This document shows, one piece after another, positions 1-21,939 of a DNA stretch of 64,000 nt. The position numbers were made by a program, and so were the translations under genes. The first letter of the stretch is position 1; every line of letters begins with the position of its first letter. The DNA is taken from positions 40,157-104,156 of the forward strand of contig JASGJI010000012.1 of NCBI GenBank assembly GCA_049840815.1, read 5' to 3'. A model generated the notes under the pieces. It ran no database searches and was not told where the DNA came from. It was given only the letters and a program-made list of their open reading frames with translations. This stretch comes from Thermomicrobiales bacterium (GTDB lineage: Bacteria; Chloroflexota; Chloroflexia; Thermomicrobiales; UBA6265).

Positions 1-408
1 TATGCGCCGATCCTCGCCGAGATCGAGCGTCGGGATCAGAACGCGGATGCACTCTCAGGTGATCCTCTGGCCCCAGCACCTTCCCACCGGAACAACGACC
101 TGATGGCTCTCGCCGCCGATCTGAAGGCAGCGTGGCCCATCGAGCAGTTCTGCGCCGACCTCCTGGCGATGCGGCTGGAAGGGCGAGGGGCTCGTCTGAA
201 GGGCCGGTGCCCACTCCCCGGACACAACGACGATGATCCCTCCTTCACGGTTTACGTCAGCGACAACCGAACATGGTGCTTCGGTTGCTGGCGCGGCGGC
301 GATGTCATCGACCTGACCCGCCATTACTTCGGCCTGAGCACGTTTCGAGAAGCCGTCGAGAAACTGCAAGACGAGACACGGACCTTCTTCGGGGAGGTTC
401 GCCGATGA
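1..408 (+). CDS. CHC2 zinc-finger primase-like protein (5'-partial or starting at ATG 103)
   Basis: Frame 1 is open from the window edge. CPLPGHNDDDPSFTVY...CFGCWRGGDVIDL matches the DnaG/P4-type CHC2 zinc finger. The stop overlaps the next start (ATGA at 405-408). Confidence 0.65.
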   Translation, partial: YAPILAEIERRDQNADALSGDPLAPAPSHRNNDLMALAADLKAAWPIEQFCADLLAMRLEGRGARLKGRCPLPGHNDDDPSFTVYVSDNRTWCFGCWRGGDVIDLTRHYFGLSTFREAVEKLQDETRTFFGEVRR

Positions 409-2006: not shown

Positions 2007-2374
2007 TGAATCCTCACGACATCCTCGCCGAGGTCTACTCGGTCAGCGCCGCGCTCGAACTCGACGATGACCGGATCACCTGTCCAACGGTCTACCGTCT
2101 CCCGCCCGACCTGCGCAAGGAGATCGGCGAGCACAAGGCGGCGCTGCTCGCCCTACTGCACGAAGCCCGCATCGGCGAGACCGACCACGGATTCTGGCTG
2201 CCGCGCCGGTTTGTTCCTCCCGCTGATTGCGAGAACGAACGGACCTGCGCCAGGCACGGGCTGTGTCCAGCGGCACTCGCGGGTGAACCATGCGCCCGCT
2301 CACCGGGAAACACGTTGTACCCACCTGCGAACTCCAGCGCGAACAGCTCCAACACGAAGGACAAAAGACAATGA
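2000..2374 (+). CDS. hypothetical protein
   Basis: The ORF abuts and overlaps the previous stop (GTG 2000/2003 or ATG 2006). Its stop overlaps the next ATG (ATGA at 2371-2374). Confidence 0.5.
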   Translation: MVMNPHDILAEVYSVSAALELDDDRITCPTVYRLPPDLRKEIGEHKAALLALLHEARIGETDHGFWLPRRFVPPADCENERTCARHGLCPAALAGEPCARSPGNTLYPPANSSANSSNTKDKRQ

Positions 2375-2919
2375 CCACTCGGGTGACGATCGAAATCGAG
2401 ATTGACGACAACGCAGACCTTCCAAATGAGCCATGCGGCGTTCCCGAGGCGACGTTCCTCGAACCCGACTTCTTCTACCCGATGCGCGCGGCACTCGACC
2501 TAGCGAAGGCATGTGGTGTCCTGCCCATTCCTCGTACCTGGGGGCCGGTGATGTGGCCCGCCTGGGCGCATGCATGCAGGATGCAATCGCTGCCGGAAGT
2601 CGTCGTGGTCACAGGAAGGGACGGTCGCAAGTCGGTGGATGTCACGATCGGTCACCTTCCGAACTCGGATCGGGCGCAATGGGAGAAGGCGGCGAAGTCC
2701 GTGCTGCCGGGACCATGCCCATGGAGACAAGGTGACTGCTCGTCCAAGTGGACGGTAGCTGTTGCCGAGGACGGGGACGCCTTCGCGCTGGCGTCGAAGG
2801 TGATTGCGGCGGGCGGGGGTTGGCCATACAGAGGAATGTCGCTCCAATTCGATTGGGGGCGGGCCCGTCGTCCATCGTGGCGCGCGGATCCGACATATGG
2901 CGTTCGCTACGTGGGCTGA
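2371..2919 (+). CDS. hypothetical protein
   Basis: 182-aa ORF coupled to the upstream gene and followed by a 21-bp-stem hairpin. Confidence 0.55.
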   Translation: MTTRVTIEIEIDDNADLPNEPCGVPEATFLEPDFFYPMRAALDLAKACGVLPIPRTWGPVMWPAWAHACRMQSLPEVVVVTGRDGRKSVDVTIGHLPNSDRAQWEKAAKSVLPGPCPWRQGDCSSKWTVAVAEDGDAFALASKVIAAGGGWPYRGMSLQFDWGRARRPSWRADPTYGVRYVG

Positions 2920-2926
2920 AGCTACG

Positions 2927-2975
2927 AACACCGAGAACCCCAGCAGGCACACAGCCTGCTGGGGTTCTCGGTGTT
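2927..2975 (+). terminator. Perfect 21-bp stem hairpin (terminator-like, no U-tract)
   Basis: AACACCGAGAACCCCAGCAGG / CCTGCTGGGGTTCTCGGTGTT with a 7-nt loop, immediately after the stop at 2919. Confidence 0.6.
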
Positions 2976-3183
2976 ACCGCAGTAGCTCGCCGTGCCTCCA
3001 TCCTTTTGCGGCGCTACATACTTGACTCCGTCCAGTCCCGCCTGCCACGATGCGGCGCATCACCTCGGGCACGGCGCAACGACAACGAGCCTCTCAACGG
3101 TTGGTCGGCGTCGACCTGGGCGGACTCGCCGCTCCAGCCTGAGCCGCTGTGCAATCGATAGCTTTCGTGAGCGAGAAACCAGC

Positions 3184-4077
3184 ATGAGCGACAACTTCGC
3201 CTGGGCAAGAGACCTCTATCCCCGGAAACGGCAGCCAGAAATTGGAGAACAGTGGGCGTACCGAGTCAAGCGGACGCTGGGGGAACCTGCCCAACGCGTG
3301 GAGGTTGTGCAGTTCGGTCCCCCTTCGTCCAAGAACAAGATGCGAATCAGGTTTCTCGACGGCGATTTTGCCGGTCTTGACGAGTGGGTGCCGAAGACAA
3401 GGTTGATCCTGCCGTGGGAAGAGCATGATGCCTGGTGGCAGGATGAGCTCAATCTGAAGGCCGCATGGGACTTCGAGGAGGAGATCGACTTCGTAGAATG
3501 GCGTGCGGTCAGCAAAGTATTCTCCGTCTACGGTGAGGGGCGTGTATTTCGCGTCGGGTTCAATCGGAAGGAATATGGCCTACTTGAAGTAAGGGACGAG
3601 GAAGAAGCCACGAAGGCTCTCAACGATCTCGGATTGCCGATCGAATCGCTTCCCATGATCTTCAAGGATCGGCACGGAGTTCATCGTGGCCCCTATTCCG
3701 CCGCTGTCATAGTCGCCAAGCATCTTTGTCAGCAGGCATCCTCAGTCATCGTTGAGGGCGTATCCAAAGATCAGCGACGAGACGAGCTTCACGCGGTTCG
3801 CGGGTGGCATTACGGCAAGGAGTCTCGATACTATGCCAGTCCTGAGTCGATGACCGAGCTTCTCAAGGAGCAAATGCCCATCTATGACCTCGTCCGCTCC
3901 TGGTGCAGCAGAGAGGTGGTTGAAGAGTTCAACAGGATAGATGCCCTCGAAGCTGAAGTAGCTCGTCTGCGCGTGATCATCGAGGATCAGGCTGAACTCT
4001 GGGAGAGGAGTGGAGACAAGCGCCGGGCCAAGCGGCTCCGCAACGAGCTCAATCTGCCGAAAGACACGAGTGATTAG
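3184..4077 (+). CDS. hypothetical protein (orphan, first gene of lower-GC cargo island)
   Basis: 297-aa ORF with an ATG start and coding-like composition. It has a C-terminal coiled-coil-like charged tail. No motif recognised. Confidence 0.55.
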   Translation: MSDNFAWARDLYPRKRQPEIGEQWAYRVKRTLGEPAQRVEVVQFGPPSSKNKMRIRFLDGDFAGLDEWVPKTRLILPWEEHDAWWQDELNLKAAWDFEEEIDFVEWRAVSKVFSVYGEGRVFRVGFNRKEYGLLEVRDEEEATKALNDLGLPIESLPMIFKDRHGVHRGPYSAAVIVAKHLCQQASSVIVEGVSKDQRRDELHAVRGWHYGKESRYYASPESMTELLKEQMPIYDLVRSWCSREVVEEFNRIDALEAEVARLRVIIEDQAELWERSGDKRRAKRLRNELNLPKDTSD

Positions 4078-4161
4078 CTCCTACTGCCTCACCTTTGTTG
4101 TGAGATACTTCGGCATCGGGTTCCACTCGTCCAATCGAATTAGTGAGGCACGGGCCAAACC

Positions 4162-4929
4162 ATGTCTGCTTACGCAAATTACTGGCGCACCATTCCCACC
4201 CTTCAGGCGACGCGAGAACTCGGCCCAGCCGAGGATGGCGTCTCCCGAGCAAGAGTAGTGGATACTCCCGCTGGTGAGTTCTATGTCAAGCACGACGCCT
4301 GGTCCGCGGAAACCGGAACACAGATCGTGGCCAATGAGTTTCTCTCTGCGGCGATCGCCAGTTCGATGAACGTTCCGATCCCAATGTTTGCCGTCGTCGT
4401 GGTGGACGGGAAGCGATGCTTTGGATGTCGCAGTGTCAGGCGGTCTGCACCATTTGTCGATGCCGCACGTCTGAGGGGGTGCAGGAATTTTGAGAGCCTG
4501 TACTCGCTGTTGGTGTTCGATGTCTGGCTGGACAATCACGATCGCCACAACGGGAACGTCATCATTGGACAAGACGGCGGGCGCACCGTTTTTTGGGCTA
4601 TCGATCATAGCCATTGTCCTTTTCCGCCTAGGCGGCTACCCCATCACCTTCCGGCATTGCATGGCCCTGAAGGCGCAGGCTCCTGCATTCCCAGCTGGTA
4701 CGCGCGCGAAGTGACCAGCATCCCCCTGCTACAACGGGCAATTGACGCAGCCAATACACTCTCCGATGATGAGATAGCGGACATTGTTCCAGGCGTCCCT
4801 GGGCAGGACTGGTCCGAAAGTGGTATCGCGCAGATCGTTGATTTCCTCGTGCATCGCCGAATCAATCTTCGGAAAATGCTAGACACGGCACGGTTTTCGC
4901 TCTCCAACCTGGAAGGAGGATCCCTGTGA
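4162..4929 (+). CDS. HipA-like (HipA_C / PI3/4-kinase-fold) serine/threonine kinase
   Basis: FDVWLDNHDRHNGNVII matches the HipA catalytic loop (D-x-H-x-x-N). WAIDHSHC is an Mg-binding D-like motif. The N-lobe has a FYVKHD lysine. Confidence 0.65.
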   Translation: MSAYANYWRTIPTLQATRELGPAEDGVSRARVVDTPAGEFYVKHDAWSAETGTQIVANEFLSAAIASSMNVPIPMFAVVVVDGKRCFGCRSVRRSAPFVDAARLRGCRNFESLYSLLVFDVWLDNHDRHNGNVIIGQDGGRTVFWAIDHSHCPFPPRRLPHHLPALHGPEGAGSCIPSWYAREVTSIPLLQRAIDAANTLSDDEIADIVPGVPGQDWSESGIAQIVDFLVHRRINLRKMLDTARFSLSNLEGGSL

Positions 4930-5756
4930 AGTCTGCTCGGTACAGCCTAATCAGATATATCCCCGACCTGGCGCGCAACGAGCCGGTCAATATCGGAATC
5001 GCAGCGTGGACCGATCACGAACTGTTGATCAAGCTATCAAAGGATGGTCTAGATCGAGCGTTTCACAGTGCACCGGACCTTTCACCTGGTGCCTTCGAAG
5101 GGTTTGAAGATTACCTGTGTGACCGGATTTCTCGACACTGGAAGACAAATCTCTCGACTCATTTCGAGGAGGCAGAGAGTCTTTTGGCGTCTTGCATTGA
5201 TCGCCCTGCCACCGTGACTCCTTCACTGTTCGTTGGAATCGATGAGAGCCGCCCCGAGCGTGAAGCGCTTGAGTTGGTGTGCGCGGAACTGGATGCTCGG
5301 CTGATCCGCCCCCCTCGAAGGTACTCTGGTCGTCGCTCTGAAGGGCTGGTCGAGTCGATGAGACGATCACTCTCGCCATTCCTGGCAGCTCACAAGGTCC
5401 ATATGGACCACGAGTTCAAGGAGACACGATCTGGCCTCCCCCAGACTGTTGACTTCTTCGTCAACTCGGGGTCCGATATCGCCCTCGACGTATTGGCCGT
5501 TCGATCAAACGCAGGGGCCGAGAGCATACTGTTGAGGTCGAGCGCGCAAGCCGCGAAGGTCATCGACATTCGCGGTTCCCAAGGAAAAACGCAAGTTTCC
5601 GAATTCCTTGTATACGCCCCAGTGGACCAGCGAGCAAACCTGGGAGACTACATCGACAAGGTGAGACAAAGCCTCTCAATAAGTGATTGCCGAGTCCTCA
5701 CCAGCCGAGACGAGGTCTTCGAAATCGTCCGCGATCAGGTGGGCGGACTCGTATAG
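4926..5756 (+). CDS. DUF3037-like protein
   Basis: The GTG start overlaps the kinase stop (GTGA at 4926-4929). The N-terminus YSLIRYIPDLARNEPVNIGIAAW resembles the DUF3037 signature as I recall it. Confidence 0.5.
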   Translation: MKSARYSLIRYIPDLARNEPVNIGIAAWTDHELLIKLSKDGLDRAFHSAPDLSPGAFEGFEDYLCDRISRHWKTNLSTHFEEAESLLASCIDRPATVTPSLFVGIDESRPEREALELVCAELDARLIRPPRRYSGRRSEGLVESMRRSLSPFLAAHKVHMDHEFKETRSGLPQTVDFFVNSGSDIALDVLAVRSNAGAESILLRSSAQAAKVIDIRGSQGKTQVSEFLVYAPVDQRANLGDYIDKVRQSLSISDCRVLTSRDEVFEIVRDQVGGLV

Positions 5757-6043
5757 GTCGTCATATCTAGGCGATCGTAAGGCAGGGAGTGTGCCCCTCC
5801 CGGTCCACCACACGCTCGCGCGCACCGGGCAGGAGCCCCACGCCAACCACGGCGACACACAGGCAAAGGCTGTGGCATACTCGGTCGAACGGGTCAGCCC
5901 ACAATCGAATCCACCATCCGGAGCCTGCCATGCGCCGTCTCGCCGACCTGATCCCCTACCCTCGCAGTCTCGCGCTCCTGGGCAACGCCGCCAGTGCAGT
6001 CAGCTCGGAGAAATGATGGACGCCCCTCCCAAATGCTGTTAGG

Positions 6044-6795: not shown

Positions 6796-7206
6796 ATGGC
6801 ACTACAACATACACACGCCTATCCAGAAGACGAATCGAGATTGCTCTCGGGCACAACCGTGTTGCCCGATCCGACTAGAACAACTACGGGCACTCAGGAT
6901 CCTGCCGGAGGGCACTCTACGTTTGACAAGTCTTCGACGCAACTTCAGCAAGGTGGCACCTCAACGATCCGTCTCGGCAATACGTCGCCAACGGTAGCCT
7001 CTCCGATGTTCACGCCATCTGGACGATCCGTATACCTGAGACGCCGCCTTGAAGAGCAACGTCTCTACGCAACTCTAAAGTCTGAAGAGGGCAAGGATCC
7101 GATTCAAGAAATTGACCGAGTCGCTGAGGAACTTTTCGGGGATGTGGTTGGCTACGAGCTACTCGCGGAAGTCCTGGCCGGCGGTGATCTCGATCATGGC
7201 TGGTAA
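6796..7206 (+). CDS. hypothetical protein (possible antitoxin-like partner of PIN)
   Basis: 136 aa with a low-complexity N-terminal half and a helical C-terminal half. Its 3' end overlaps the PIN gene start by 11 nt. Confidence 0.45.
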   Translation: MALQHTHAYPEDESRLLSGTTVLPDPTRTTTGTQDPAGGHSTFDKSSTQLQQGGTSTIRLGNTSPTVASPMFTPSGRSVYLRRRLEEQRLYATLKSEEGKDPIQEIDRVAEELFGDVVGYELLAEVLAGGDLDHGW

Positions 7207-7807
7207 GGTCGTGGATCTAAGCAGCCAGCTTGACAGTATTCCCGAGTTCTGCGTTGTTGACACGAACGTCCTGATCTCGCTATTCGTCCCGGCCACATCT
7301 CCGACCAATGCGAGGCAACGCAGTCAATCCCAAGCCCTTCGGCAACATCTGGAACAGGAAGATAAAGGCGGGTTTGTCACTCCGACTACCGTTGCGGAAA
7401 TCGCACACCTGTTTGTCAAGCTGGAGTTCACGCGCGAACTGAAGAACAATCTTGTCAAGCACGAGGCGGACTTAAGAAATCGCTTCCCAGGCAAGGCCAG
7501 GTTCGACTGGCTAGATTTGTGCAAGGTCTATCCAAGGCCCTTCGAAGCTGCTGCAAAATCGCTTCAGACCGCCTGCAGCCAAATACGTACCAGCTTCGTC
7601 TTTCTTGAACCGTTTGACCTTAGCCCGAATGCACCGGGTACACACCAATTCACGGACCTTGCCGCCGCCATAAAGCGGTACCGCATGGACTCCAATGACG
7701 CATCAATTTTGATTGAAGCTCGGCGCGCAGGAATTTCGGCAATCGTTTCGCATGATGGTGATTTGCGCAGGGCCAGCAAAGACTTTGATGTCTATACGTG
7801 GCTCTAG
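7196..7807 (+). CDS. PIN-domain nuclease (VapC-like, enlarged)
   Basis: The acidic quartet is in PIN order: VVDTNVL, TVAEIAH, DSNDASI, SHDGDL. At 203 aa it is larger than a canonical VapC. Confidence 0.7.
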   Translation: MAGKVVDLSSQLDSIPEFCVVDTNVLISLFVPATSPTNARQRSQSQALRQHLEQEDKGGFVTPTTVAEIAHLFVKLEFTRELKNNLVKHEADLRNRFPGKARFDWLDLCKVYPRPFEAAAKSLQTACSQIRTSFVFLEPFDLSPNAPGTHQFTDLAAAIKRYRMDSNDASILIEARRAGISAIVSHDGDLRRASKDFDVYTWL

Positions 7808-11331: not shown

Positions 11332-11417
11332 TGGACTAATAGTAATCCATTACGTATCAAATAGCAATAGGGTAGTGGTAGAATAGTGGTAGTAATCGCC
11401 TATAACCCGGGAGAACT
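11332..11417. promoter_or_regulatory. AT-rich divergent promoter/operator region
   Basis: Locally AT-rich. Direct repeats TAGTGGTAG sit at 11373 and 11384 (11-bp spacing), with a TAGAAT -10-like hexamer 34 nt upstream of the XRE ATG. Confidence 0.5.
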
Positions 11418-11627
11418 ATGAAGACGATCGAGCAGATGAGGAAGTCCGCGGGCATGACGCAGATGCAGTTAGCCGTAGCGGTCGGTGTGTCGCTCGCCAC
11501 GGTGTACAACTGGGAAGCCCGCAAGACTGAGCCGAAAGCATCACAACTCCGGAAGGTTGCGACTCTCTTCGGGGTATCGATGGACGATATCGACTTCGAG
11601 CCAAGAGACAAAGTAGCCGCCGGGTGA
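11418..11627 (+). CDS. XRE-family helix-turn-helix transcriptional regulator
   Basis: MTQMQLAVAVGVSLATVYNWEARKTEP is a classic Cro/CI-type HTH. 69 aa. Confidence 0.85.
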   Translation: MKTIEQMRKSAGMTQMQLAVAVGVSLATVYNWEARKTEPKASQLRKVATLFGVSMDDIDFEPRDKVAAG

Positions 11628-11697
11628 TTGATCACTCGGCGGCTGGCAAGGCTCCCACCGTTTGCAGTCGGTGGAGGACATCGCCAGTGTAGCGGAT

Positions 11698-11776
11698 TCG
11701 TCCTTTCGTCCTTTCGTCCCGTTCCCTAGTGTGAAGCGGTTTGGGACGAATATCGGGACGAATCCGAACGGGACGA
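11698..11776. repeat. TCGTCC iteron array (3 direct with 8-bp period + 3 inverted)
   Basis: TCGTCC at 11698, 11706 and 11714. GGACGA at 11744, 11756 and 11771. Confidence 0.8.
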
Positions 11777-11851
11777 GAGGCAGGCGGGGCAACCCCATCC
11801 CTGTGCAGTTGAGACGCCAAGGACCCGGAGATCAGGCGTGGTACATACACC

Positions 11852-12040
11852 ATGCAGCCTATTGTCGTCCTGGTGCCCATCGTGATCGCCCTAGGCTTCT
11901 GGGGCTGGATGTTCAGCGATATGGAGAAGAACGCCGAGATCACACCGGAGCAACGGCAGTGGTGGCGGTTCGCCTTCCTGTTCGGCAACGTTGTCACCGC
12001 AGCGTTCTACTTCGGCTACGTGTACCTGCGGCGATCGTAA
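11852..12040 (+). CDS. small two-TM membrane protein (PLD-N-terminal-like)
   Basis: 62 aa with two hydrophobic segments and a W/F-rich pattern that resembles small PLDc_N-type proteins. The assignment is tentative. Confidence 0.5.
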   Translation: MQPIVVLVPIVIALGFWGWMFSDMEKNAEITPEQRQWWRFAFLFGNVVTAAFYFGYVYLRRS

Positions 12041-12047
12041 CCACCAC

Positions 12048-12167
12048 TCCGCCAAAGCGGTCCGCCAAATTCCCTATATATGGCGGAGTGGCGGACTGGC
12101 GGACCGCTCCCACCTGTCCGCCAAATCGGAGTACGGGGATTGCTGGCGGAGCGCTCTGGCTGGCGGA
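12048..12167. repeat. TCCGCCA/TGGCGGA iteron cluster (8 copies) around a TATATA core
   Basis: TCCGCCA at 12048, 12061 and 12117. TGGCGGA at 12081, 12089, 12097 (8-bp period), 12144 and 12161. The same heptamer recurs in repeat copy B (13524, 13568). Confidence 0.85.
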
Positions 12168-12259
12168 CTGGTATTCACGTGTTGCGTGACTATGAGGCTC
12201 GCCCATCCCGCTGGGCGAGCGGGACATACCGCGCGTTGCGGGGCCAGCAGGTACGCAGG

Positions 12260-12448
12260 GAGATGGGTGAGCAGGTGGACAGCACACCATCACGCGGGTG
12301 AGCGGGTAGGGGGTGAGCGGGTAGGCAGGTGGGGAGCGGGAGCGTCTGTCTGATTGTTGGTTGGTAGGTGAAGCGGTAGCGTGTGTTCTGTTTGGTGTTG
12401 TGGTAGGGGATTGTATTATTGGTTGGGATTGTGTTGTGTGATTGGGTG
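12260..12448. other. G-rich then G+T-rich, C-depleted tract (no ORF)
   Basis: Tandem GTGAGCGGGTAGG at 12298 and 12313, with several GGG runs. The tract 12351-12448 contains only 3 C in 98 nt. Confidence 0.8.
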
Positions 12449-12631
12449 CCCTACCCACCTGTCGATATGAATTACCCGAAAATCCTCCGAACCCGCCCAC
12501 AAGATCACGCTGCTTTCACGAATTATGTCTACCTGCTGCCCTGATCGGTCGTGTGCCGGTTGCGTAGTTTCCGGCCAGCAGGTGGTGATGGTGCACGGCA
12601 GGAGGTGTAGCAGCAAAGCAGCGTGACAACC

Positions 12632-12853
12632 TTATTCTGGATGCAGGGCAGGCAGGTGTTCCGGCGCTCGGGTGCCGACAATCGGAACGTCAGTAGCGCC
12701 GGTGCGGTCGGCATTGGTGAGGTATCGGGGCTTCCGTATTCTGGTTGAGGGGTGAACAGGTTGCGAAACGTAAGTGACAGCCTGTCGCCCTCTCGCGTAG
12801 CTCCGAAACCACTCGGCAGGCATTGTATACACAGCCGATACCCCCGATCGCAT
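12632..12853 (-). CDS. possible small basic protein (73 aa)
   Basis: The start overlaps the upstream stop as TAATG. The composition is only weakly coding-like. Confidence 0.25.
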   Translation of the reverse strand: MRSGVSAVYTMPAEWFRSYARGRQAVTYVSQPVHPSTRIRKPRYLTNADRTGATDVPIVGTRAPEHLPALHPE

Positions 12854-13077
12854 TATCCGGATTCCGCGATCAATTCCACCTGGCGACCTGGCAGCGGTAT
12901 AGGGCGCACGTCGCTGATGTCCCAGTCGCCGGACTCGACATGCTGAATGAGTTGGTCACCGTCAGGTTCGGCACGAAGTTGGTCAAGGAGTTTTGTGTGT
13001 TCCTTGAGTGCTGTTCGCGAGCTGTAGCCCACCGCCTTGGCGAGCTGGCCAGCGGTGGATCGGTCGTTCTTGGTCAC
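12853..13077 (-). CDS. hypothetical protein with HTH-like segment
   Basis: 74 aa. STAGQLAKAVGYSSRTALKEH looks like a helix-turn-helix. The gene overlaps the upstream gene's stop (13074-13077). Confidence 0.5.
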   Translation of the reverse strand: MTKNDRSTAGQLAKAVGYSSRTALKEHTKLLDQLRAEPDGDQLIQHVESGDWDISDVRPIPLPGRQVELIAESG

Positions 13078-13505: not shown

Positions 13506-13639
13506 CATATTCGCATTTGTCCCTCCGCCAACCGATAAATGCGAATCGCATTATTCGCATTTATTCCTCCGCCAACCGATAAATGCGATAAATGCGAATC
13601 GCATTTATCAGTTGCCCGCCATTCCTCACGAGGCTTCCG
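13506..13639. repeat. AT-rich palindromic iteron module, copy B (inverted relative to copy A, with one extra unit)
   Basis: The reverse complement of 13535-13630 matches 1836-1931 with 4 mismatches. There is an additional CCTCCGCCAACCGATAAATGCGA-like unit at 13506-13545. Confidence 0.9.
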
Positions 13640-13981: not shown

Positions 13982-14141
13982 GTTTCCCCCTTGTCGTGGA
14001 ATTGAACATTCGAACTTTCTTTTGCGATTTCCGGGTGAACAGATGGCGAGCATCGCGCACCAGAAACACTATTATGTCTACTTGATCCGATACAATGGAG
14101 GTACCCGGATTCGCGGGGATCACCGTTGAAGAGGTCGCCCT

Positions 14142-17100
14142 GTGTCCCAGTACAACCAGTTCCTGAAGAACGCCGTGAACAACGCGCTGGCCGCGACGAA
14201 GCCGCAGACTGCCCTCTCCCCTGTGGCGCAGTCGCTGCTTGCCGCATCGCAGTCGGCGGCACAGCGGCAGGTCAGCCAGCCCGCGATGCCGTCCGTCGGC
14301 GCGCAGTCGGCAGCGTCGGCGACGAGCCGGTTTGGCGGGTTGCCTGATCCGACGGAACTGGGACGGCAGGCGGCACAGGCGATCCAGCAGAACGCCATCC
14401 AGAGGTCGATCGCCCAGCCGACACCTGCACCGCCGCTGAACGCTGGTGTCTTCGGTCAGAACGCCGCGACCAGTCGTGCTCGGTTCGATCAGCGCCCTGC
14501 GGCGCTCCCCTCGTCACAGAACGCCATGACCGGTGTGCTGACCGCGCAGCCGGTGATGGGCCTCTCACAGAAGGCAGCCCAGGCAGCGGTAAGCGAGGGC
14601 GCGGAGAACCGCCCCGGCTCGTCCACGGCGGCGAGTACTGGCGCGCCCCTCTCCCCGTCCGAACGGCTCGTCTCGGTCTACAGTCCGGATGGCAAGCTCG
14701 TCATCGTACCGGAATCGCGCGCGTCCACCCTGCCCACCGGCTGGCAGAAGGGGAGCGAGATCGAGGCGGGCAAGGTCGATCGCGCGAAGCAGAGTCCTGC
14801 CTATATCGACAATCAGGATGCCCAGACGCAGGCACAGTTCCCGGTGGCGACCCCTGTCGCTCCGGTTACTCCGGCTGCGTCCGGCGGCGCAACGCAGCAG
14901 ACTCAGATGAGCGGTATGGGCGGCGGCTCTGGCATGCAGCAGGAAGCCCCTGGGCCACATCCTGTGTCGGCCAAGGGCGATCCGGAGACGACATACGTCG
15001 TCGTCACCAGCTCGACCGACCCGAGCGCCCAGCCGGTCATCATGACCGAGTGGGAGTACTGGAACCTCTACGCCAACGATCCCGAGTATCAGGTTCTCTC
15101 GAATCAGCGGATGAACGCCGAGGTGGCGGCAAGTGGGCGCATGATCGACCAGGGCGACTACGTCGCCCAGCGCCAGAAGGGCGTCGAGCCGTCCGCCAAC
15201 ACCGGCAATCCCGGAGAGATCAGCTACGTCACCGACGCGGTTGGCAACGCCGCTGGCTACGCGGGCGACAAGATCGGCGAGGCAGCTAGCTACGTCGGCG
15301 GCAAGGTGGCCGACGGTGCCGGTGCCCTCTGGGGTGCGGTCCCCGATACGGTGAAGCACGGAGCAGCCGAAGCGGCGAAGAAGAGTGGGCAGGCCGTGCT
15401 CGAAAGCCGATGGGTGAAGAGTGCCGGCGCTGCGTGGGAATCGCTGCCACAGGGAGCGAAGGACTGGATCATCCAGCACAACATCGAGATCATCGACATG
15501 CCGCGCGGGTTCACCGTCGAGACGGGCACCGGAGCGATCTACAAGAAGTCACGAGGTGAAAGCCTCGACGGCGGCGACGTGGCCACGGCAACCTATCTCG
15601 ATTCGATGACCGTTGCCGCCACAGCCATCCCCGGAGGCGGCGACAAGTCGATCAGCGCCTACATCGAGGACAACCAGGACGAAGCCGATCGGGTCTACCG
15701 CTATGGCTGGGATGCCGACGGTGACGGGGTGGCCGACTACACCGGCGATCGGGCGATCTGGGAATGGTATGTGAACAGCCTGAGTGTCCCCGAGCGGATG
15801 TTCCTCGATACCGTCACCGACCCGCTCTCGGCCACCGGGGTGATGGGCAAGGCCGGTCGCGGGCTTCGGGTAGCAGGCCGTGCCGTGGAAGGGGCCGAGG
15901 ATGCCAGCATCGTGGAGAAGGCCATCGGAAAGGTCCTGACGGGGGCCGGTGCTGTCGCTGAGGCCCCCGAAGCGGTGTTCGACAAGCCGGTCGATTTCGT
16001 CTTCGACCACGCCGGCAGGGTCGTCGGCAAGGTCGTCAAGCGCACGCCGATGTCGGTCGGAGAGGAAAAGGCTGGCCAGGCAGCCGGTACGCTGGAGCAG
16101 GTCACCAAGCGGGACAGTATCGAGCGACGATCCGCTGGCGGTGAGGGCGGAGTTCCGCCGACGCCTGCCGGACCTGATGGGTCAGTGGCGGTTGGCTCGG
16201 CTGACGCCGAAGGCTACGTCTTGCAGGCCGACGGCACGCGCGCCAAGACCATTGGTAACCGGACGGTTGCTCGCCATCCGGATGGCACGATGGTCATCAC
16301 CCGCCAGAATGCCGACACGACGATCATCTACCCCGACGGCAGTCAGGTCACGATCTCGAAGGATCAGGCCGGGCCACTCGCGCCGACGGCTGGTACGCCG
16401 ACCGGGACGAATCCGTCGGGTGGCCCGACGCTTGCCGAAACGCCAGCCGGTCCGGAGGTCCCGAAGCCTCGCGGAGAGGACGTGCGAACGCCCGGCGGGG
16501 AAGGCGGCGCTCCTACCCATCCGGCATCGGCAGCATCGAAGACAGTGCCTGCCAGCACGGTGCCGGAAGATTGGGGAGCGCCGACCGTCACGACGACCGA
16601 TGGCGTGACGGAGTCCCGCTACCCGAACGGCACCACCCGCTATGTGGATGAGACCACGGGCGAGGCGGAGACGTATTACGCCGACGGCGTTCGCGTTGTC
16701 GAGACGCCCAACGCCGAGCCGCTGGTCGAGTACGAGTACCCCGACGGATCATTCCGCGAAACGCCGCCGACCGGGACGGCAGCGCGGGCCGGTCGGATCG
16801 ACACCCTCGAATACAACCAGGTCGCTCCCGCCCGTGTGGGTGACCGCTTCCCCACCGAGGGGTTGGACAAGCGCCAGGCGGAGGTTGTGACGGCCTTCAA
16901 CCAGCGGCTTTCCCGGCAGAACGCATCGAAGTACAAGACCTATATCGACAGGCCGGACTACTATCCAGCCCGGCAGGAAATTGACATTGCGACCGGCATT
17001 GCGGCGCAGGCCGACGAACTCGAATCGCGATTCGGGCGGATCACGCCGAGTGCTCCTCCCGCGGTTGGCAAGGCCTCTGTGCAGGGCAACGATGTGCGCA

Positions 17101-20100
17101 GGGTCCTGTATGAACCATGGGACACCACCGCGACGGAGCGCTCACGCCTCTACAAGAGCGGCGCGATATCCGCCGATTCCGCCCCGAATGGCCGTGCCCG
17201 CGAAGCGTACCGGAACCTCGTCGAATCCCATGCCCGCTTCGTTCCCGAGGATGTGGAGTACTCGGCAGACTTCCGTCGTGCGCTCGATCAGGCACGCGAC
17301 ATCTACACTGGAGGCAAGCCACGGATCGACCCCTATAGCAGCCGCCTAGCCACACGACGGCCCGGCAACGTTGGCATCGTGAGGAATCCCCGTGCCGAGG
17401 CCGAGGCTGCTGCGGGGCGAACGAGCAATCTCTTCGACCGCTATCGCGACTCCTATCGCGCCGTGCAGCGGGCAGAGCGCGAGAAGCACGTCGGTGCGGG
17501 CGGCTGGGTTGGGGATGGCAGTGCTGAACCGGTGATGGTTCGCGGTCGGGCGCTGGCTCCCAGCGAGTACCGCGACCTGACCGACGACGCGCTCGCCATG
17601 CCACGCGAGTTCTCCCAGGTCGATCATCGCGACAAGCGATGGGTCAAGGAGTGGGAGAAGGGTGAGCGTAAGGGGGTCGAGACGGAGACGCCGCTCGATC
17701 GCTGGGAACGCAAGGCCGACGAGTACGAGCGGCGCGGGCTTGATCCGCGCGCTGCCGATACACGAGCTGCCCAGGATGTCATCTCCGACATGAACCGGTG
17801 GAACGACCTGAAATACGGCATGATCAAGGGGCGAGCCACCGGCGAGCAGTCAACCGCGGCCATGAAGGCGTTCGATGTCTACCGGAACATGCAGCAGCTC
17901 TCGCGCGAGGGCATGCTGACTGGGCCAACGACCGGTCTCCGGTATGTGACGAATCAGGGCCTGGGCAACGCTGTGACGCTGATCATCACGCGCAACGGGG
18001 ACCCGCTGGACCTCCTGCGGTACACGTTCAACGTCCGTGGCCTGAAACGGAACTACGAGGACATCACGAAGCTGGCGAACTTCCAGCACACGCTGGATCA
18101 CCAGGCGGACGAGCTGCTCGGGCGGAAGGCGGCGAAGGACGGGATCTCGGTCGGAGAGTGGGTGCAGCTGTCCGACAAGTCGGATGTCCGCGCTTCCCGT
18201 GTGGGCTATCGCATCAGGAACGATGTCGAGACGCAGGTCCGCATGGAGATGGGGGACATCACCGCCTACCAGCGATCCGCGTGGGCAAAGCTGCTCGGGT
18301 CACCGTTCGCAGATGGCAGCACGGCGCAGCGCGTCGCCGACGTGGCTTCCCGTTTCGTTTCTGTGCCCGAGTTCGCCAAGGCAGCCGCCGCCTATGACAT
18401 GTATGCGCGGAAGTTCCTGCAGGAACGGATCGTCAAGCGCGAGTGGAGCAGCCTGCTCGACGACATCACCGAACGGGTGGTGAAGGAGACGAACGGTCGG
18501 GTCGGTCGCGAAGAAATGGCGGACTTCGTCGCGCGCACCGACGGCGGGTGGTTCTCGCAGGATGACCTGCGTGTCTTCCTGAAGGAGCAGGGCGTCAGCG
18601 ACGCGACCTCCGTTCGGGTTGGCAGTGCGTGGCAGGAAGGCGTCAACCGGGTCTACGACAAGGGCGCGCAGGAAGTGAAGCGCGTCATGTTCTACGGGCG
18701 GACGAATGCCGACGAGCTGATGGGGCACATCTTCGCCTTCCACTACTGGATGTCGCGCGCCAGCAAGCTCTATGCCCAGGAGTTGCTGAGCAACCCGGCC
18801 TACCTCGCGGCCTACATCCGGATGAACAAGGGCCTCGAACACATGGCCGAAGATGGCCGCTATCCCGCGTGGTTGCGCGGTACGATCCGGATCGGTCTCG
18901 GGTTGTTCCCTGGCTTCAACATCTACCTGAATCCCATGCAGTTCCTCCAGACGCTCGTGACGGGGCAGTACGGCGACACCTTCGATGACAAGGACGTGCC
19001 CACCTGGCGCAAGGTCCTGGAGGCCACAGGCCTGATGATGAGCCCGCCGCTGCAGACCGCGCTGGACATGGCCGGTCTTGGTGGTGACGGCCCGATTGCC
19101 GACCCGATCGGGGCTAGCGCAACGGTCGGCACAGCGGTCGATGCTGCCAACTTCGTGCAAGCCCAGACGAACCCGAGTGGTGGTGTGATTGCCGATCCCT
19201 ACCAGAAGGCATTGCGCTGGGGAGCGGAGAAGGTCTCTGCGGTGGCTGCGGAGGTGGGCATGCCTGGCGCGAAGCCGGTCGCACCGAAGACCGGCACCGA
19301 GCAGAAGAATCGCGAGATCAACGAGATGATCATCACGATCGCGGAAGAGAAGGGCATCATCTCATCTGACGTGGCCGAGCGGGCGCGACAGGCGGACGCG
19401 AACGGCCAGACGTTGCCGGATGAGGTCGTGACCGCGATGAACAACCCGGACGATCCGTTGTGGCAGGAGGCCTACCAGCGGGTCGCGGTGAAGGATGTCG
19501 TTCTGCGCACAACGAAGGCGACACCGTTCGGCGTCCTCTACCCCCAGGTGCGAACCGAGACGCGGGATGAGCGGTTGGCGATCACCGACCGTGGCAGCGA
19601 GGATCTGCCTGCATGGCAGGCCACCATCAACGACATCCTGTCGATCGCGCGGACCGGTCGTCCGGAACGGGATCGGCCTGCCAGCCCCGAAGTGATCGCG
19701 GATGGCGGCAAGGACCCGCAGACTGGGAACGTGTCCCTGAAGGAGCGGGCACTTCGCCAGTACTACGGCAGCGCCTACCAGTCCGGCACCAGCGAGGCCG
19801 ACCAGGCGTATGCCGAAGGGCGGATCACGAACTCGGCGACGAGCGAATCGGCTCAGCTGCAATCGGAAGTCGAGAAGGTCTATTCGGCGGGCACAAGCGA
19901 TCCCCGCGTGAAGGTTGCCGCCAATCGGGCGAACAGGATCGTCTATGGTGAGGACGATGGCAGCTTCAAGGGCGTCTTCGTGAAGGGGACGATCTACACC
20001 CCGGAGCAGCTGGCAAGCATGACCGATAGCCAGCGCCGCTCGCTCGCAGCCATGTGGCTGGACGAACAGGGCATGACTGCCGCTGTGAAGAAGAGCAAGG

Positions 20101-21005
20101 ACGACCGGGATGCCGCCCTCGTGGCCTCCAGCCCGCAGACGCAGCAGTTCTTCGACTGGCGGGGCAAGGCCTATCAGGCCGGGCCGGGCTACGCTGAGCA
20201 GCTGGCGCGTGAGAACCCAAGCTACGGAGCGTTCTACAACGGGCTGTCTGCCGAGCAGAAGCAGAAGCCGAATGTCCTCTTCGGGACGGACGGCTACCTC
20301 GCCATGATCGGCACGCAAAGCAAGTACAACGACCCGGCAGGCATGGCCACCCAAGACCCGGGCAAACGGGTTGCCGATCCGCTCAGCTCCAGTGGTTACT
20401 ACTCGCCCTATACCGAGGAACCGTCAGGATCGAAGAAGGGCAGCACAGGCACGTCCTCCAAGCCGCCGAAGACGCACGCTGACGCCGTACGGGAAGATCA
20501 GGCGGAGTACCAGCGCAAGGTCGAGCAGTGGCAGTGGCAGGCAGAGCTGGTGCTCGGGTACACGCCGCTGCCGGGCGCTACAAGCAAGGACGAGAAGACG
20601 GCGTTGAAGGCCGCCGGTGTGGATCAGGATGGTCCGAGCAAGTCCACCTACCAAAAGGATTACGAGTTCTGGGCGGGCCAGCAGTCCGCCGGGTCGGACA
20701 CCTCTCCCGAGGCGTACGAGGTGTGGCGGGTTGCGCAGGGCTACCAGGACGCCATCGTTGACCCGAACGCGCCGCCAGCCGGTACACCTATCGGCGGGTC
20801 GGCCAGTGCCAGCAGGACGCAGGGCAAGCGGAACACCTCCTTCGAGGCGCGAGCAAATATGATCAATGCGCTGCCGGTGCAGGAGCGCCAGCGGTGGATG
20901 TATGCCGCCGACGGCTCGCTCACCGACTTGGGCATCCTGCTTGCCGCCGAGGCGAAGCGAAACGGGTACAAGATCGCGTGGGATGGCAAGCTGGTGAAGA
21001 AGTGA
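14142..21005 (+). CDS. giant orphan protein (2,287 aa), cysteine-free, Q/A/S-rich N-terminus, HPDG/YPDG/YPNG repeats
   Basis: An uninterrupted 6.86-kb ORF with a GTG start and GAAGAGG 7 nt upstream. Reading the translation, I found no Cys. I recognised no catalytic motif (no HExxH, no P-loop). Confidence 0.8.
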   Translation: MSQYNQFLKNAVNNALAATKPQTALSPVAQSLLAASQSAAQRQVSQPAMPSVGAQSAASATSRFGGLPDPTELGRQAAQAIQQNAIQRSIAQPTPAPPLNAGVFGQNAATSRARFDQRPAALPSSQNAMTGVLTAQPVMGLSQKAAQAAVSEGAENRPGSSTAASTGAPLSPSERLVSVYSPDGKLVIVPESRASTLPTGWQKGSEIEAGKVDRAKQSPAYIDNQDAQTQAQFPVATPVAPVTPAASGGATQQTQMSGMGGGSGMQQEAPGPHPVSAKGDPETTYVVVTSSTDPSAQPVIMTEWEYWNLYANDPEYQVLSNQRMNAEVAASGRMIDQGDYVAQRQKGVEPSANTGNPGEISYVTDAVGNAAGYAGDKIGEAASYVGGKVADGAGALWGAVPDTVKHGAAEAAKKSGQAVLESRWVKSAGAAWESLPQGAKDWIIQHNIEIIDMPRGFTVETGTGAIYKKSRGESLDGGDVATATYLDSMTVAATAIPGGGDKSISAYIEDNQDEADRVYRYGWDADGDGVADYTGDRAIWEWYVNSLSVPERMFLDTVTDPLSATGVMGKAGRGLRVAGRAVEGAEDASIVEKAIGKVLTGAGAVAEAPEAVFDKPVDFVFDHAGRVVGKVVKRTPMSVGEEKAGQAAGTLEQVTKRDSIERRSAGGEGGVPPTPAGPDGSVAVGSADAEGYVLQADGTRAKTIGNRTVARHPDGTMVITRQNADTTIIYPDGSQVTISKDQAGPLAPTAGTPTGTNPSGGPTLAETPAGPEVPKPRGEDVRTPGGEGGAPTHPASAASKTVPASTVPEDWGAPTVTTTDGVTESRYPNGTTRYVDETTGEAETYYADGVRVVETPNAEPLVEYEYPDGSFRETPPTGTAARAGRIDTLEYNQVAPARVGDRFPTEGLDKRQAEVVTAFNQRLSRQNASKYKTYIDRPDYYPARQEIDIATGIAAQADELESRFGRITPSAPPAVGKASVQGNDVRRVLYEPWDTTATERSRLYKSGAISADSAPNGRAREAYRNLVESHARFVPEDVEYSADFRRALDQARDIYTGGKPRIDPYSSRLATRRPGNVGIVRNPRAEAEAAAGRTSNLFDRYRDSYRAVQRAEREKHVGAGGWVGDGSAEPVMVRGRALAPSEYRDLTDDALAMPREFSQVDHRDKRWVKEWEKGERKGVETETPLDRWERKADEYERRGLDPRAADTRAAQDVISDMNRWNDLKYGMIKGRATGEQSTAAMKAFDVYRNMQQLSREGMLTGPTTGLRYVTNQGLGNAVTLIITRNGDPLDLLRYTFNVRGLKRNYEDITKLANFQHTLDHQADELLGRKAAKDGISVGEWVQLSDKSDVRASRVGYRIRNDVETQVRMEMGDITAYQRSAWAKLLGSPFADGSTAQRVADVASRFVSVPEFAKAAAAYDMYARKFLQERIVKREWSSLLDDITERVVKETNGRVGREEMADFVARTDGGWFSQDDLRVFLKEQGVSDATSVRVGSAWQEGVNRVYDKGAQEVKRVMFYGRTNADELMGHIFAFHYWMSRASKLYAQELLSNPAYLAAYIRMNKGLEHMAEDGRYPAWLRGTIRIGLGLFPGFNIYLNPMQFLQTLVTGQYGDTFDDKDVPTWRKVLEATGLMMSPPLQTALDMAGLGGDGPIADPIGASATVGTAVDAANFVQAQTNPSGGVIADPYQKALRWGAEKVSAVAAEVGMPGAKPVAPKTGTEQKNREINEMIITIAEEKGIISSDVAERARQADANGQTLPDEVVTAMNNPDDPLWQEAYQRVAVKDVVLRTTKATPFGVLYPQVRTETRDERLAITDRGSEDLPAWQATINDILSIARTGRPERDRPASPEVIADGGKDPQTGNVSLKERALRQYYGSAYQSGTSEADQAYAEGRITNSATSESAQLQSEVEKVYSAGTSDPRVKVAANRANRIVYGEDDGSFKGVFVKGTIYTPEQLASMTDSQRRSLAAMWLDEQGMTAAVKKSKDDRDAALVASSPQTQQFFDWRGKAYQAGPGYAEQLARENPSYGAFYNGLSAEQKQKPNVLFGTDGYLAMIGTQSKYNDPAGMATQDPGKRVADPLSSSGYYSPYTEEPSGSKKGSTGTSSKPPKTHADAVREDQAEYQRKVEQWQWQAELVLGYTPLPGATSKDEKTALKAAGVDQDGPSKSTYQKDYEFWAGQQSAGSDTSPEAYEVWRVAQGYQDAIVDPNAPPAGTPIGGSASASRTQGKRNTSFEARANMINALPVQERQRWMYAADGSLTDLGILLAAEAKRNGYKIAWDGKLVKK

Positions 21006-21154: not shown

Positions 21155-21185
21155 AAAACGGCCAGTCACATCGACTGGCCGTTTT
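21155..21185. terminator. Bidirectional rho-independent-type terminator
   Basis: AAAACGGCCAGTC-acatc-GACTGGCCGTTTT, with an A-tract and a T-tract flanking a 9-bp GC-rich stem. Confidence 0.75.
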
Positions 21186-21206: not shown

Positions 21207-21282
21207 TGGGGTGCCCTACGGGGCTCGAACCCGTAACCTCATGTTCCACAGACAAGCGCTCTGCCATTGAGCTAAGGGCACC
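21207..21282 (-). tRNA. tRNA-His (GTG)
   Basis: Cloverleaf with the extra G(-1), anticodon loop CTGTGGA, T-loop TTCGAGC, and an encoded CCA. Confidence 0.9.
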
Positions 21283-21300
21283 ATGAACACGCTGGACGAC

Positions 21301-21660
21301 GGAGAAGAAAGGGAGTGTAAGCCGAGTTCTGTTCCTGATGGTCATCTCTCTCGACCGATTGCTCGGTCGGTCACGTCGTCGCCTTCGTAACTGCTCTCGA
21401 CTTCCGGCCTCGGCGAGCAACCTGATAGCGGCCGATTCGGAGATTGCTGCGGGGAGGATTGCCCTTTTCAGTCCACCACCATGACGGCGGCGGCAATGGT
21501 CTCTGTTGCTCTCACGGTCCCGGAGGACCGCGCCAGTCTGGACTGTCGACGCGATCGCTCGCGCCTCCCTGGCTTTCACCAGGCACCCACGCTCTGTGCA
21601 GCTCGGACTTTCCTCTGACCCCAGAAGGGCCAGCGACCATCCATCCCGACTTTCCGCCAG
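21301..21660 (-). ncRNA. rnpB: RNase P RNA (bacterial type A); ends approximate
   Basis: The minus strand carries GAGGAAAGTCCGAGC (P4 5' strand) and ACAGAACTCGGCTTAC (P4 3' strand). A compensatory G>A / C>U change relative to the usual GGG/CCC preserves pairing. Confidence 0.85.
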
Positions 21661-21740
21661 CGTATCCGATTGGAAAGGTGCACGCCCCACTCAGGAACCG
21701 CAGGCCAGATCACTCATGGATTGCGTCGATGCTTGGGGAG

Positions 21741-21826
<86 letters not shown>

Positions 21827-21866
21827 TCGTCCGAGATTATCGCGCATCCAGCCTGGAGTTTCCAGG

Positions 21867-21939
21867 AGCCGACCGTCGGACTCGAACCGACGACCTGCTG
21901 TTTACGAAACAGCTGCTCTACCAACTGAGCTAGGCCGGC
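21867..21939 (-). tRNA. tRNA-Thr (CGT)
   Basis: Anticodon loop TTCGTAA and T-loop TTCGAGT. CCA is not encoded. Confidence 0.85.

Follow-up and report, generated by a model that had tools for sequence, protein, structure and literature searches.

A giant cysteine-free gene beside a tRNA-His gene in a Thermomicrobiales bacterium: an intact member of an unnamed family best read as phage ejection proteins

The window analysed in this study is a whole stretch of 64,000 nucleotides from a Thermomicrobiales bacterium of the Chloroflexota (assembly GCA_049840815.1, contig JASGJI010000012.1, positions 40,157 to 104,156 of the forward strand). It was found that a single giant open reading frame (ORF) of 2,287 amino acid (aa) residues lies on its plus strand at positions 14142-21005, at the right end of an island bordered by a tRNA-His gene. 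By homology, the ORF belongs to a large uncharacterised family of giant phage proteins. The start codon is GTG, and a ribosome-binding site, GAAGAGG, can be read from the sequence 7 nucleotides before it (14128-14134). The GTG start is also backed by homology, since the N-terminal YNQFL sequence fits a motif of the family. The GC content at third codon positions (GC3) is 0.73-0.85 across all 600-nucleotide blocks of the ORF. Thus, the ORF is a real gene and not a chance reading frame of GC-rich DNA. The gene is intact, with neither a stop codon nor a frameshift over 6.9 kb. An assembly chimera is unlikely, judging from the host-like GC3 and from the two boundaries, which lie in intact intergenic regions with the ribosome-binding site and a terminator.

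The upstream intergenic region (13982-14141, plus strand), which holds the GAAGAGG sequence, is 160 bp long and lies between the giant gene and a divergent small Zn-ribbon gene on the minus strand. No sigma-70 consensus promoter was scored in this region. Downstream, a 13-bp GC-rich hairpin (21155-21185) with an A-run and a T-run on its sides is common to the giant gene and the convergent tRNA cluster on the minus strand. The tRNA-His(GTG) gene (21207-21281, minus strand), whose 3′ end faces the giant gene, forms the right edge of the island. The initial annotation, which was made from the DNA letters and their translations, had described the 6.86-kb ORF, a clean bidirectional terminator behind it and the tRNA-His junction. 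The ORF and the junction were found as described. The symmetry of the hairpin was read directly; the terminator scan scored it on the plus strand only.

The giant protein has no cysteine in 2,287 residues, as the initial annotation had stated. Given the mean cysteine content of 0.63% in 14 other genes of the window, the probability of having zero cysteine over this length is about 5e-7. The N-terminal region (14142-15041, plus strand) was delimited by motif and composition; it starts with MSQYNQFL and continues as P/A/Q/S-rich low-complexity sequence for about 300 residues, of which 64% are P, A, Q, G, S or T. Thus, the low-complexity N-terminus noticed at first was reproduced. So were the beta-hairpin-like repeats: four [YH]P[DN]G units lie at aa 712, 730, 827 and 866. 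They belong to a lineage-specific variable region with P/T/G-rich linkers (aa ~690-880; 16209-16781, plus strand), and under a strict pattern the YPDG-type units were found in the window protein only. Pfam Tcp10_C (PF07202) scored 29.1 bits (E=7.8e-7) over two stretches of the protein. Since the gathering threshold is 36 bits, membership in the Tcp10_C/G-box repeat family was rejected, and the likeness is confined to short beta-hairpin units. Large-scale internal repeats were likewise rejected. A hydrophobic patch had also been pointed out. It is real and corresponds to the most conserved motif of the family, but it is not a transmembrane segment, as the highest Kyte-Doolittle mean over 19 residues is 1.07 in the whole protein. 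Neither a transmembrane segment nor a signal peptide was seen from the hydropathy and the N-terminus, which disfavours the surface protein that had been offered as one option. Walker A and HExxH motifs are absent, in line with the earlier remark that no catalytic signature could be recognised.

Is this protein an orphan, as was initially thought? I performed an exhaustive phmmer (HMMER) search with residues 1090-2287 against 1.84 billion cluster representatives, in which each family representative stands for a cluster at 50% identity. In total, 296 representatives were found at E<=1e-3, of which 209 were at E<=1e-10 and 24 at E<=1e-30. The orphan status is thus refuted. Nearly all of the family members are 1,700-3,270 aa in length (median 2,008 aa, maximum 3,270 aa). 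A core of about 400 aa was detected in 149 of the 150 best matches, and seven core columns are invariant among 27 diverse members. In addition, the N-terminal motif M-x(1-4)-[FY]-[DN]-x-F-L was found in 44 of 119 giant members, against a background rate of 1.75%.

In the window protein, the core corresponds to a block C (aa 1400-1830; 18339-19631, plus strand) which is predicted to be all-alpha and has the motif TNxDE-x7-FHYWMSRA...NP...GFNIF...DP. Its invariant residues D1524, R1539, P1552, G1591, P1598, G1645 and D1654 are all kept in the window giant, and the residues 1400-1817 match the hidden Markov model of the core with 446.8 bits. Outside the core, the full-length alignment revealed three more shared blocks, all of them on the plus strand. 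Block A (aa 505-680; 15654-16181), as defined by the alignment with its per-position conservation, has the consensus GYDxxxDGxxFTGGRAVWExY...DPLN and the invariant residues N511, G522, G535, W540, E541, D560 and P561. Block B (aa 1170-1290; 17649-18011) has the alignment consensus RExxLYNxxTGxRYxxTQxVGNxxT. Block D (aa 1890-2200; 19809-20741) is a helical C-terminal region according to the alignment and an AlphaFold (AF2) model. The window giant retains the N-terminal motif, the P-rich region and the blocks A, B, C and D with an alignment occupancy of 0.9-1.0. Between the window gene and that of its closest relative, P0002 (52% identity), the ratio of nonsynonymous to synonymous substitution rates (dN/dS) is about 0.35, with a saturated dS.

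The exclusion of cysteine is a property of the whole family. Among the 150 best matches, there are 41 cysteine residues in 286,011 residues (0.014%), and of the 119 members with 1,500 aa or more, 108 are entirely free of it. The rare cysteines cluster within apparent inserted segments. A Pfam scan of 40 members found recognisable domains in a minority: M23 in three members, SLT, Amidase_2 (4.5e-29), SH3 and ADPrib_exo_Tox. The 3,270-aa member additionally matches Mod_ADP_RT. A ParB-like insert is present in the middle regions of 22 of the 150 members. A DNA-methyltransferase-like stretch lies inside the giant of one phage locus (L004), and the sole match of this homologue was a DNA-methyltransferase stretch of Salisaeta phage SSIP-1. 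In about three quarters of the proteins scanned, the window protein among them, no enzyme domain could be recognised.

The AF2 model of the core, which was made with the family alignment, is all-alpha with a mean confidence (pLDDT) of 73. A larger model of aa 1140-2287 is also all-alpha (pLDDT 74, predicted template modelling score 0.60). The most conserved family motif was modelled with low confidence in the core-only model. Foldseek searches with both models against PDB and BFVD gave no match at E<0.5, and the PDB matches were all at E>0.9. Searches of Pfam, PHROGs, NCBIfam, PADLOC and PDB sequences with the window giant found nothing above the cut-offs, and ParB was the sole match of the family profile in PDB. 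The initial annotation had allowed for clear homology to a characterised protein class; none was found in sequence, profile or Foldseek searches. The family is large, widespread and unnamed, and is without a detectable sequence or fold relative among characterised proteins.

Other searches at hand were also empty. A word-indexed protein search with the full query returned only the window protein itself, while aa 290-1089 and the core alignment returned nothing; the cause was that low-complexity words crowded the candidate list. By tblastn, the window giant had no match in 50,697 phage records or 72,556 plasmid records. Scans of viral contigs for close relatives with the giant and with the DUF3987 protein of the same island found none, nor did a first metagenome scan for relatives. 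Two motif-based scans of 185,579 species-representative genomes, which do not include the source metagenome-assembled genome, also found no relative, indicating that chromosomal copies are uncommon. As for the closest relative P0002, its gene was called as two overlapping genes (1-1242 and 1239-5861) within 1-5861 of a 6.1-kb contig (L009). Either a frameshift or an assembly error inside this gene accounts for the split call. Downstream of it, there is a hairpin and then another gene, not a tRNA.

Where are the homologues encoded? The loci were drawn from IMG/VR, JGI and Logan assemblies, and one conserved gene order was found in the phage loci. A small MerR-like gene is followed by the large terminase gene (TerL), a portal-sized gene, genes for proteins of ~240 aa and ~140 aa, a lysin gene and the giant gene. 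Next come a scaffold-like gene (257-273 aa), an SU10-type major capsid protein (PF17236), an Ig-like protein, and larger tail and fibre genes, including a collagen-like fibre. The TerL of a phage locus matches PHROGs at 3e-9. The lysin (444-692 aa) has Pfam SLT (3e-22) and M23 (3e-14) domains and is matched by phrog_342, annotated as "internal virion protein with endolysin domain". An SLT/M23 protein adjoins the giant in every readable phage locus. The position after the SLT/M23 lysin and before the scaffold and capsid genes was seen in L001-L006, L008, L010-L012 and L022, and SU10_MCP was recorded in L008, L010, L011 and L012. In the phage contigs, nothing separates the giant gene from the lysin stop codon, whereas the window copy has its own 160-bp upstream region. 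The capsid protein shares only about 24% identity with that of any cultured phage, which places the lineage among uncultured phages. One relative lies inside a predicted provirus of 44.6 kb, on a contig of 107.7 kb; hence some members, at least, are temperate.

The lack of cysteine was found to extend over the neighbours of the giant gene. In seven phage loci, the cysteine content is 0% for the ~240-aa protein (p240), 0% for the ~140-aa protein (p140), 0.17% for the lysin and 0.01% for the giant. In the same loci, it is 0.77% for TerL and 0.56% for the portal-sized protein. Thus, the p240, p140, SLT/M23 lysin and giant genes form a contiguous cysteine-free block, of which the giant is the last and largest gene. 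The p240 and p140 proteins of L003-L011 lack cysteine and match nothing in Pfam or PHROGs, and the p140 proteins have a common C-terminal motif (...QRGE...RW..R). They are candidates for small ejection proteins forming a membrane pore. The portal-sized genes of L003-L011 (673-759 aa) carry long P/M/G-rich low-complexity tails at both ends and match neither portal models nor solved portals; if they are portals, they are highly divergent.

These results suggest that the window gene is intact and belongs to a family of giant, cysteine-excluded proteins of the ejection type in uncultured phages, and that it now stands alone on an integrated mosaic island beside tRNA-His. I put the probability of this reading at about 0.68. 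The best reading of the family is that of giant ejection (internal virion) proteins built on a polyvalent scaffold, and by analogy the uncultured phages most likely pack these proteins into the capsid and eject them into the host with the DNA. This reading follows from the position in the head module, the cysteine-free block, the neighbouring lysin and the hydrolase and ADP-ribosyltransferase domains inserted in some members. An ejected protein was among the options of the initial annotation, which had also tied the lack of cysteine to such a role. Both ideas gained from the finding that the homologues sit in a cysteine-free block of phage head modules, next to an SLT/M23 gene.

Similar blocks are known in phages with characterised ejection proteins. 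In SU10, the virion contains gp20-24 before but not after the release of its genome (PMC9509320). I found that all five proteins (2,956 aa in total; L020, KM044272, 21102-30095) have zero cysteine, while other SU10 virion proteins have 0.25-1.75%. The gp20 protein is a transglycosylase, and gp24 (1,473 aa) is the last in the operon. SU10 and the phages of the relatives have in common a PF17236-type major capsid protein and an ejection block with a peptidoglycan hydrolase, in which the largest protein comes last and is followed by a terminator. In contrast, the SU10 block sits after the tail genes and not beside the portal gene, and hhalign of the family profile against gp24 gave a probability of <1%.

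In Schitoviridae, suppression of cysteine is documented for the ejection operon, which includes a virion RNA polymerase (vRNAP) of ~3,500 aa, and is ascribed to the passage through the periplasm (PMC11445570). The operon of N4 and DEV encodes gp52/gp73 (~150 aa), gp51/gp72 (~570-640 aa) and the vRNAP gp50/gp71 (~3,400-3,500 aa). In N4, gp52 (150 aa), gp51 (644 aa) and gp50 (3,500 aa) have no cysteine in 4,294 aa (L023, EF056009, 9524-22524). This contiguous order of small, medium and giant proteins with the giant last resembles the order of p140, lysin and giant in the phages of the relatives. A giant of the N4 type must traverse a tail channel of 30-45 Å, presumably unfolded (PMC13434306). 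Several differences exist, however. The family has neither an RNA-polymerase domain nor a predicted membrane-spanning N-terminal domain, its middle protein is an SLT/M23 lysin, there is an extra member of ~240 aa, and the block is flanked by the portal-sized gene on one side and by the scaffold and capsid genes on the other. By hhalign, the probability against N4 gp50 was 0.3%, and phmmer found nothing.

The capsid-internal proteins gp14-gp15-gp16 of T7 and gp7-gp20-gp16 of P22 are ejected before the DNA and build a conduit across the envelope. T7 gp16 has an SLT domain, as does the lysin adjoining the giant. The T7 and P22 proteins are much smaller, though, and the giant has no match to them in PHROGs or PDB. 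The fourth comparison is with polyvalent proteins, which are very large, are predicted to be injected with the invading DNA, occur in phages and conjugative elements, and are linked to terminase-portal phages (Iyer, Burroughs, Anand, de Souza, Aravind 2017, PMC5512222). The inserts of the family (peptidoglycan hydrolases, ADP-ribosyltransferase, ParB-like and methyltransferase-like) are of the kinds listed for these proteins. On the other hand, no polyvalent-associated (LPD) or ArdC-N Pfam match was found in 41 proteins scanned, and the family shares a conserved scaffold of ~1,500 aa with unknown fold instead of a string of known domains. Polyvalent proteins are defined by at least two disparate activities; the window giant has 0 domains above the cut-off, and some relatives have 1-2. 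In summary, the family is ejection-like by every indirect criterion available, yet it is no detectable member of the characterised ejection-protein families.

How might such a protein work? If it acts like the proteins of the N4/DEV, SU10 and T7 ejection operons, a few copies would be packed into the capsid, possibly via the conserved N-terminal motif of the FDxFL type. At infection, the giant may pass down the narrow tail channel in a largely unfolded state, in the company of the lysin and either before the DNA or along with it. It would then refold into an all-alpha assembly which helps the genome across the envelope. Some members may in addition deliver the inserted enzyme domains, namely peptidoglycan hydrolases, ParB-like domains and ADP-ribosyltransferases of the Alt/Mod type. 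Cysteine would be selected against if the proteins must unfold and cross an oxidising compartment. As for the window gene, the simplest account is that it was a piece of a temperate phage of this lineage, which has been retained on or captured by an integrated element. Packaging and ejection, the reason for the exclusion of cysteine and the history of the local copy are what I infer from these comparisons.

An apparent orphan has become an entry to a dark-matter family of at least 296 clusters, for which neither a structural relative nor a model in Pfam, PHROGs or NCBIfam exists. An uncultured phage lineage probably relies on this family as its main protein for genome delivery. The kind of protein, a giant cysteine-free protein ejected by a phage, is known; the family itself is unnamed, large and structurally unmatched, and a solo copy on a chromosome is unusual. 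Near-absolute exclusion of cysteine over a contiguous block would mark ejection proteins well beyond N4-like phages. Since the ejection proteins named for SU10 and N4 are exactly the cysteine-free genes, it seems that ejection genes could generally be predicted from such a contiguous block, which would give a cheap annotation rule for metagenomic phages. The sporadic enzyme inserts in a constant scaffold suggest a vehicle of modular design that delivers early-acting effectors. As a solitary intact gene on an island with DUF3987, the window copy is an oddity and could show how satellites or hosts reuse ejection machinery.

Several points weigh against this interpretation. The function is deduced from gene position, composition and inserted domains of a family known from its genes. 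Homology could be detected neither to N4 gp50 or SU10 gp24 nor to any solved structure, and the window protein itself has no recognisable enzyme domain. The portal identity of the neighbour of ~710 aa was not confirmed by sequence, and its label follows size and position. Chromosomal copies are rare, and the window copy could be decaying. No TerL, portal, p240, p140, lysin, scaffold or major capsid protein was found within the 64 kb by tblastn with the ORFs of the phage loci or by a six-frame profile search; the giant gene was the sole match. In this genome, the giant cannot act canonically if it has no such partners outside the window. Next to the window copy there is no lysin gene, and the protein has no hydrolase domain of its own.

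What surrounds the giant gene instead? The island genes upstream of it encode a CHC2 Zn-ribbon protein, a DUF3987 helicase (2.3e-64), a HipA_2-like kinase, a DUF3037 protein, a PIN-domain protein, an ArdC-N-like protein (1.7e-4, marginally below the Pfam cut-off), a DUF3102 protein and the small Zn-ribbon protein. The GC3 of the giant gene is 0.81, within the range of host genes (0.76-0.87), while that of the 3-7.8-kb segment is 0.61-0.65. With segments at 0.61-0.65, 0.72-0.78 and 0.81, the island is a mosaic. The low-GC3 block includes the HipA_2-like kinase gene (6.3e-7, with weak PADLOC candidate-defence matches PDC-M03A and PDC-M66A), which overlaps the DUF3037 gene by 4 nucleotides (4162-5756 for the pair), and the PIN-domain gene (7112-7807). 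The low GC3 suggests that this block is recently acquired toxin or defence cargo. No integrase and no att repeat are visible in the window, the 3′ end of the tRNA-His gene is not repeated within 1-21000, and the left end of the island lies beyond the window. Thus, the giant is the terminal gene of the element by its position, as had been proposed, although the features that would delimit the element were not seen. A linkage of the family to DUF3987 or primase elements had also been raised. It does not hold as a family property: homologues of 17 island ORFs were absent from the readable flanks of the giant homologues.

Among the alternatives, it is conceivable, though rather unlikely, that a degraded prophage has left nothing but this gene, which would have no present function and would not have accrued disabling mutations yet. 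The absence of every partner gene from the window would fit such a remnant, as would the mosaic composition of the island, with stretches lacking convincing ORFs (e.g. 11.4-13.0 kb), and the provirus on the 107.7-kb contig shows that the lineage includes temperate phages. However, the 6.9-kb ORF is uninterrupted and has retained all five conserved blocks and zero cysteine, and its ribosome-binding site and terminator are in place. The dN/dS of ~0.35 also argues against decay, though this value mostly reflects the history before stranding.

The island may instead be a phage satellite, which would replicate with the DUF3987 helicase and keep the giant for packing into helper capsids, favouring its own delivery or establishment. 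DUF3987 (PF13148) is among the marker "primase" families by which PICMI satellites are defined (PMC10803314). A tRNA gene borders the island, in which capsid, terminase and portal genes are all missing. The giant gene has stayed intact, is under purifying selection and has its own regulatory region, and two iteron-like 105-nucleotide repeats could be replication origins. In a test of the SatelliteFinder type for PICMI, which calls for an integrase, an AlpA-type regulator and a DUF3987/DUF5906 primase in a single small island, DUF3987 was present (2.3e-64), while no integrase or AlpA was found among the scanned ORFs, the left end of the island being outside the window. No AlpA-type regulator, att repeat or packaging site was seen in the window either, no helper phage is known, and the closest relative P0002 is on a 6-kb contig which is uninformative on the context. 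Moreover, I know of no described satellite that carries an ejection protein. This possibility is therefore a doubtful one.

A bolder version is equally tentative. The island would be phage-parasitic or phage-derived and would keep the giant of its helper alone, either co-packaging it for its own entry or having the host express it to disturb how incoming phages of that lineage assemble their ejection channel, and the scaffold would be a new solution for genome delivery. If this is true, a 1,500-aa scaffold structurally unrelated to known delivery proteins is used throughout the lineage and carries swappable effector domains.

The remaining alternatives concern the nature of the protein. A tape measure protein of a long-tailed phage is typically long, helical, cysteine-poor and ejected, often with M23 or SLT domains. 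The peptidoglycan-hydrolase inserts of some members and the all-alpha prediction would suit it, and the weak, non-significant BFVD matches (E>2) include tape-measure entries. Yet the giant gene lies between the portal-sized gene and the scaffold and capsid genes, not between tail chaperones and distal tail genes, and the genes after the capsid gene resemble a short-tail set (Ig-like decoration, proteins of 380-700 aa and fibres). Neither the window giant nor any of the 40 scanned members matched a tape-measure model of Pfam or PHROGs, and hundreds of P-rich low-complexity residues and globular inserts ill suit a length ruler. A tape measure is thus very improbable. Equally remote is an escort protein of the polyvalent kind, moved with the DNA of a conjugative or mobilisable element by a type IV secretion system. 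The ArdC-N-like gene (E=1.7e-4) and the DUF3102 gene nearby would be in keeping with it, and polyvalent proteins are known from phages and conjugative elements alike (PMC5512222), but no relaxase, coupling protein or secretion-system gene is in the window, the 72,556 plasmids gave no match, and all of the homologues with a readable genomic context are in phage head modules. Finally, the idea that the core conceals an enzyme, be it a virion RNA polymerase like that of N4 gp50 or some other, is the least credible: the size class, the suppression of cysteine, the position at the end of the block and the invariant D, H and R residues of the core recall it, but hhalign gave only 0.3%, neither the family profile in PDB nor Foldseek with the two models found an RNA polymerase, no such Pfam match occurs in 40 members, and the core is all-alpha.

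Some other features of the island were recorded. At its right border, the tRNA genes His-GTG, Leu-CAG and Thr-CGT lie in a row on the minus strand (21207-21939), and an unannotated gap of ~460 bp separates tRNA-His from tRNA-Leu. The stretch 11400-13000 has no ORF with a convincing coding signal or a family match, and Rfam gave nothing at the gathering threshold; it may hold pseudogenes or non-coding elements. The 105-nucleotide repeat is inverted, with arms at 1827-1931 and 13535-13639 which are 94% complementary. It duplicates, in inverted orientation, the 3′ end of the DUF3987 helicase gene, and both arms encode RKPREEWRATDKC[ED]SHLSHLSV[AG]GGINANNAIRIY. The arms could be iteron or origin clusters for the helicase, as in the ori and crr of P4, or the ends of an invertible or transposed segment. 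Each arm has several copies of the AT-rich palindrome ATAAATGCGAATCGCATTTAT, and together they flank a segment of 11.6 kb with the lower-GC cargo genes.

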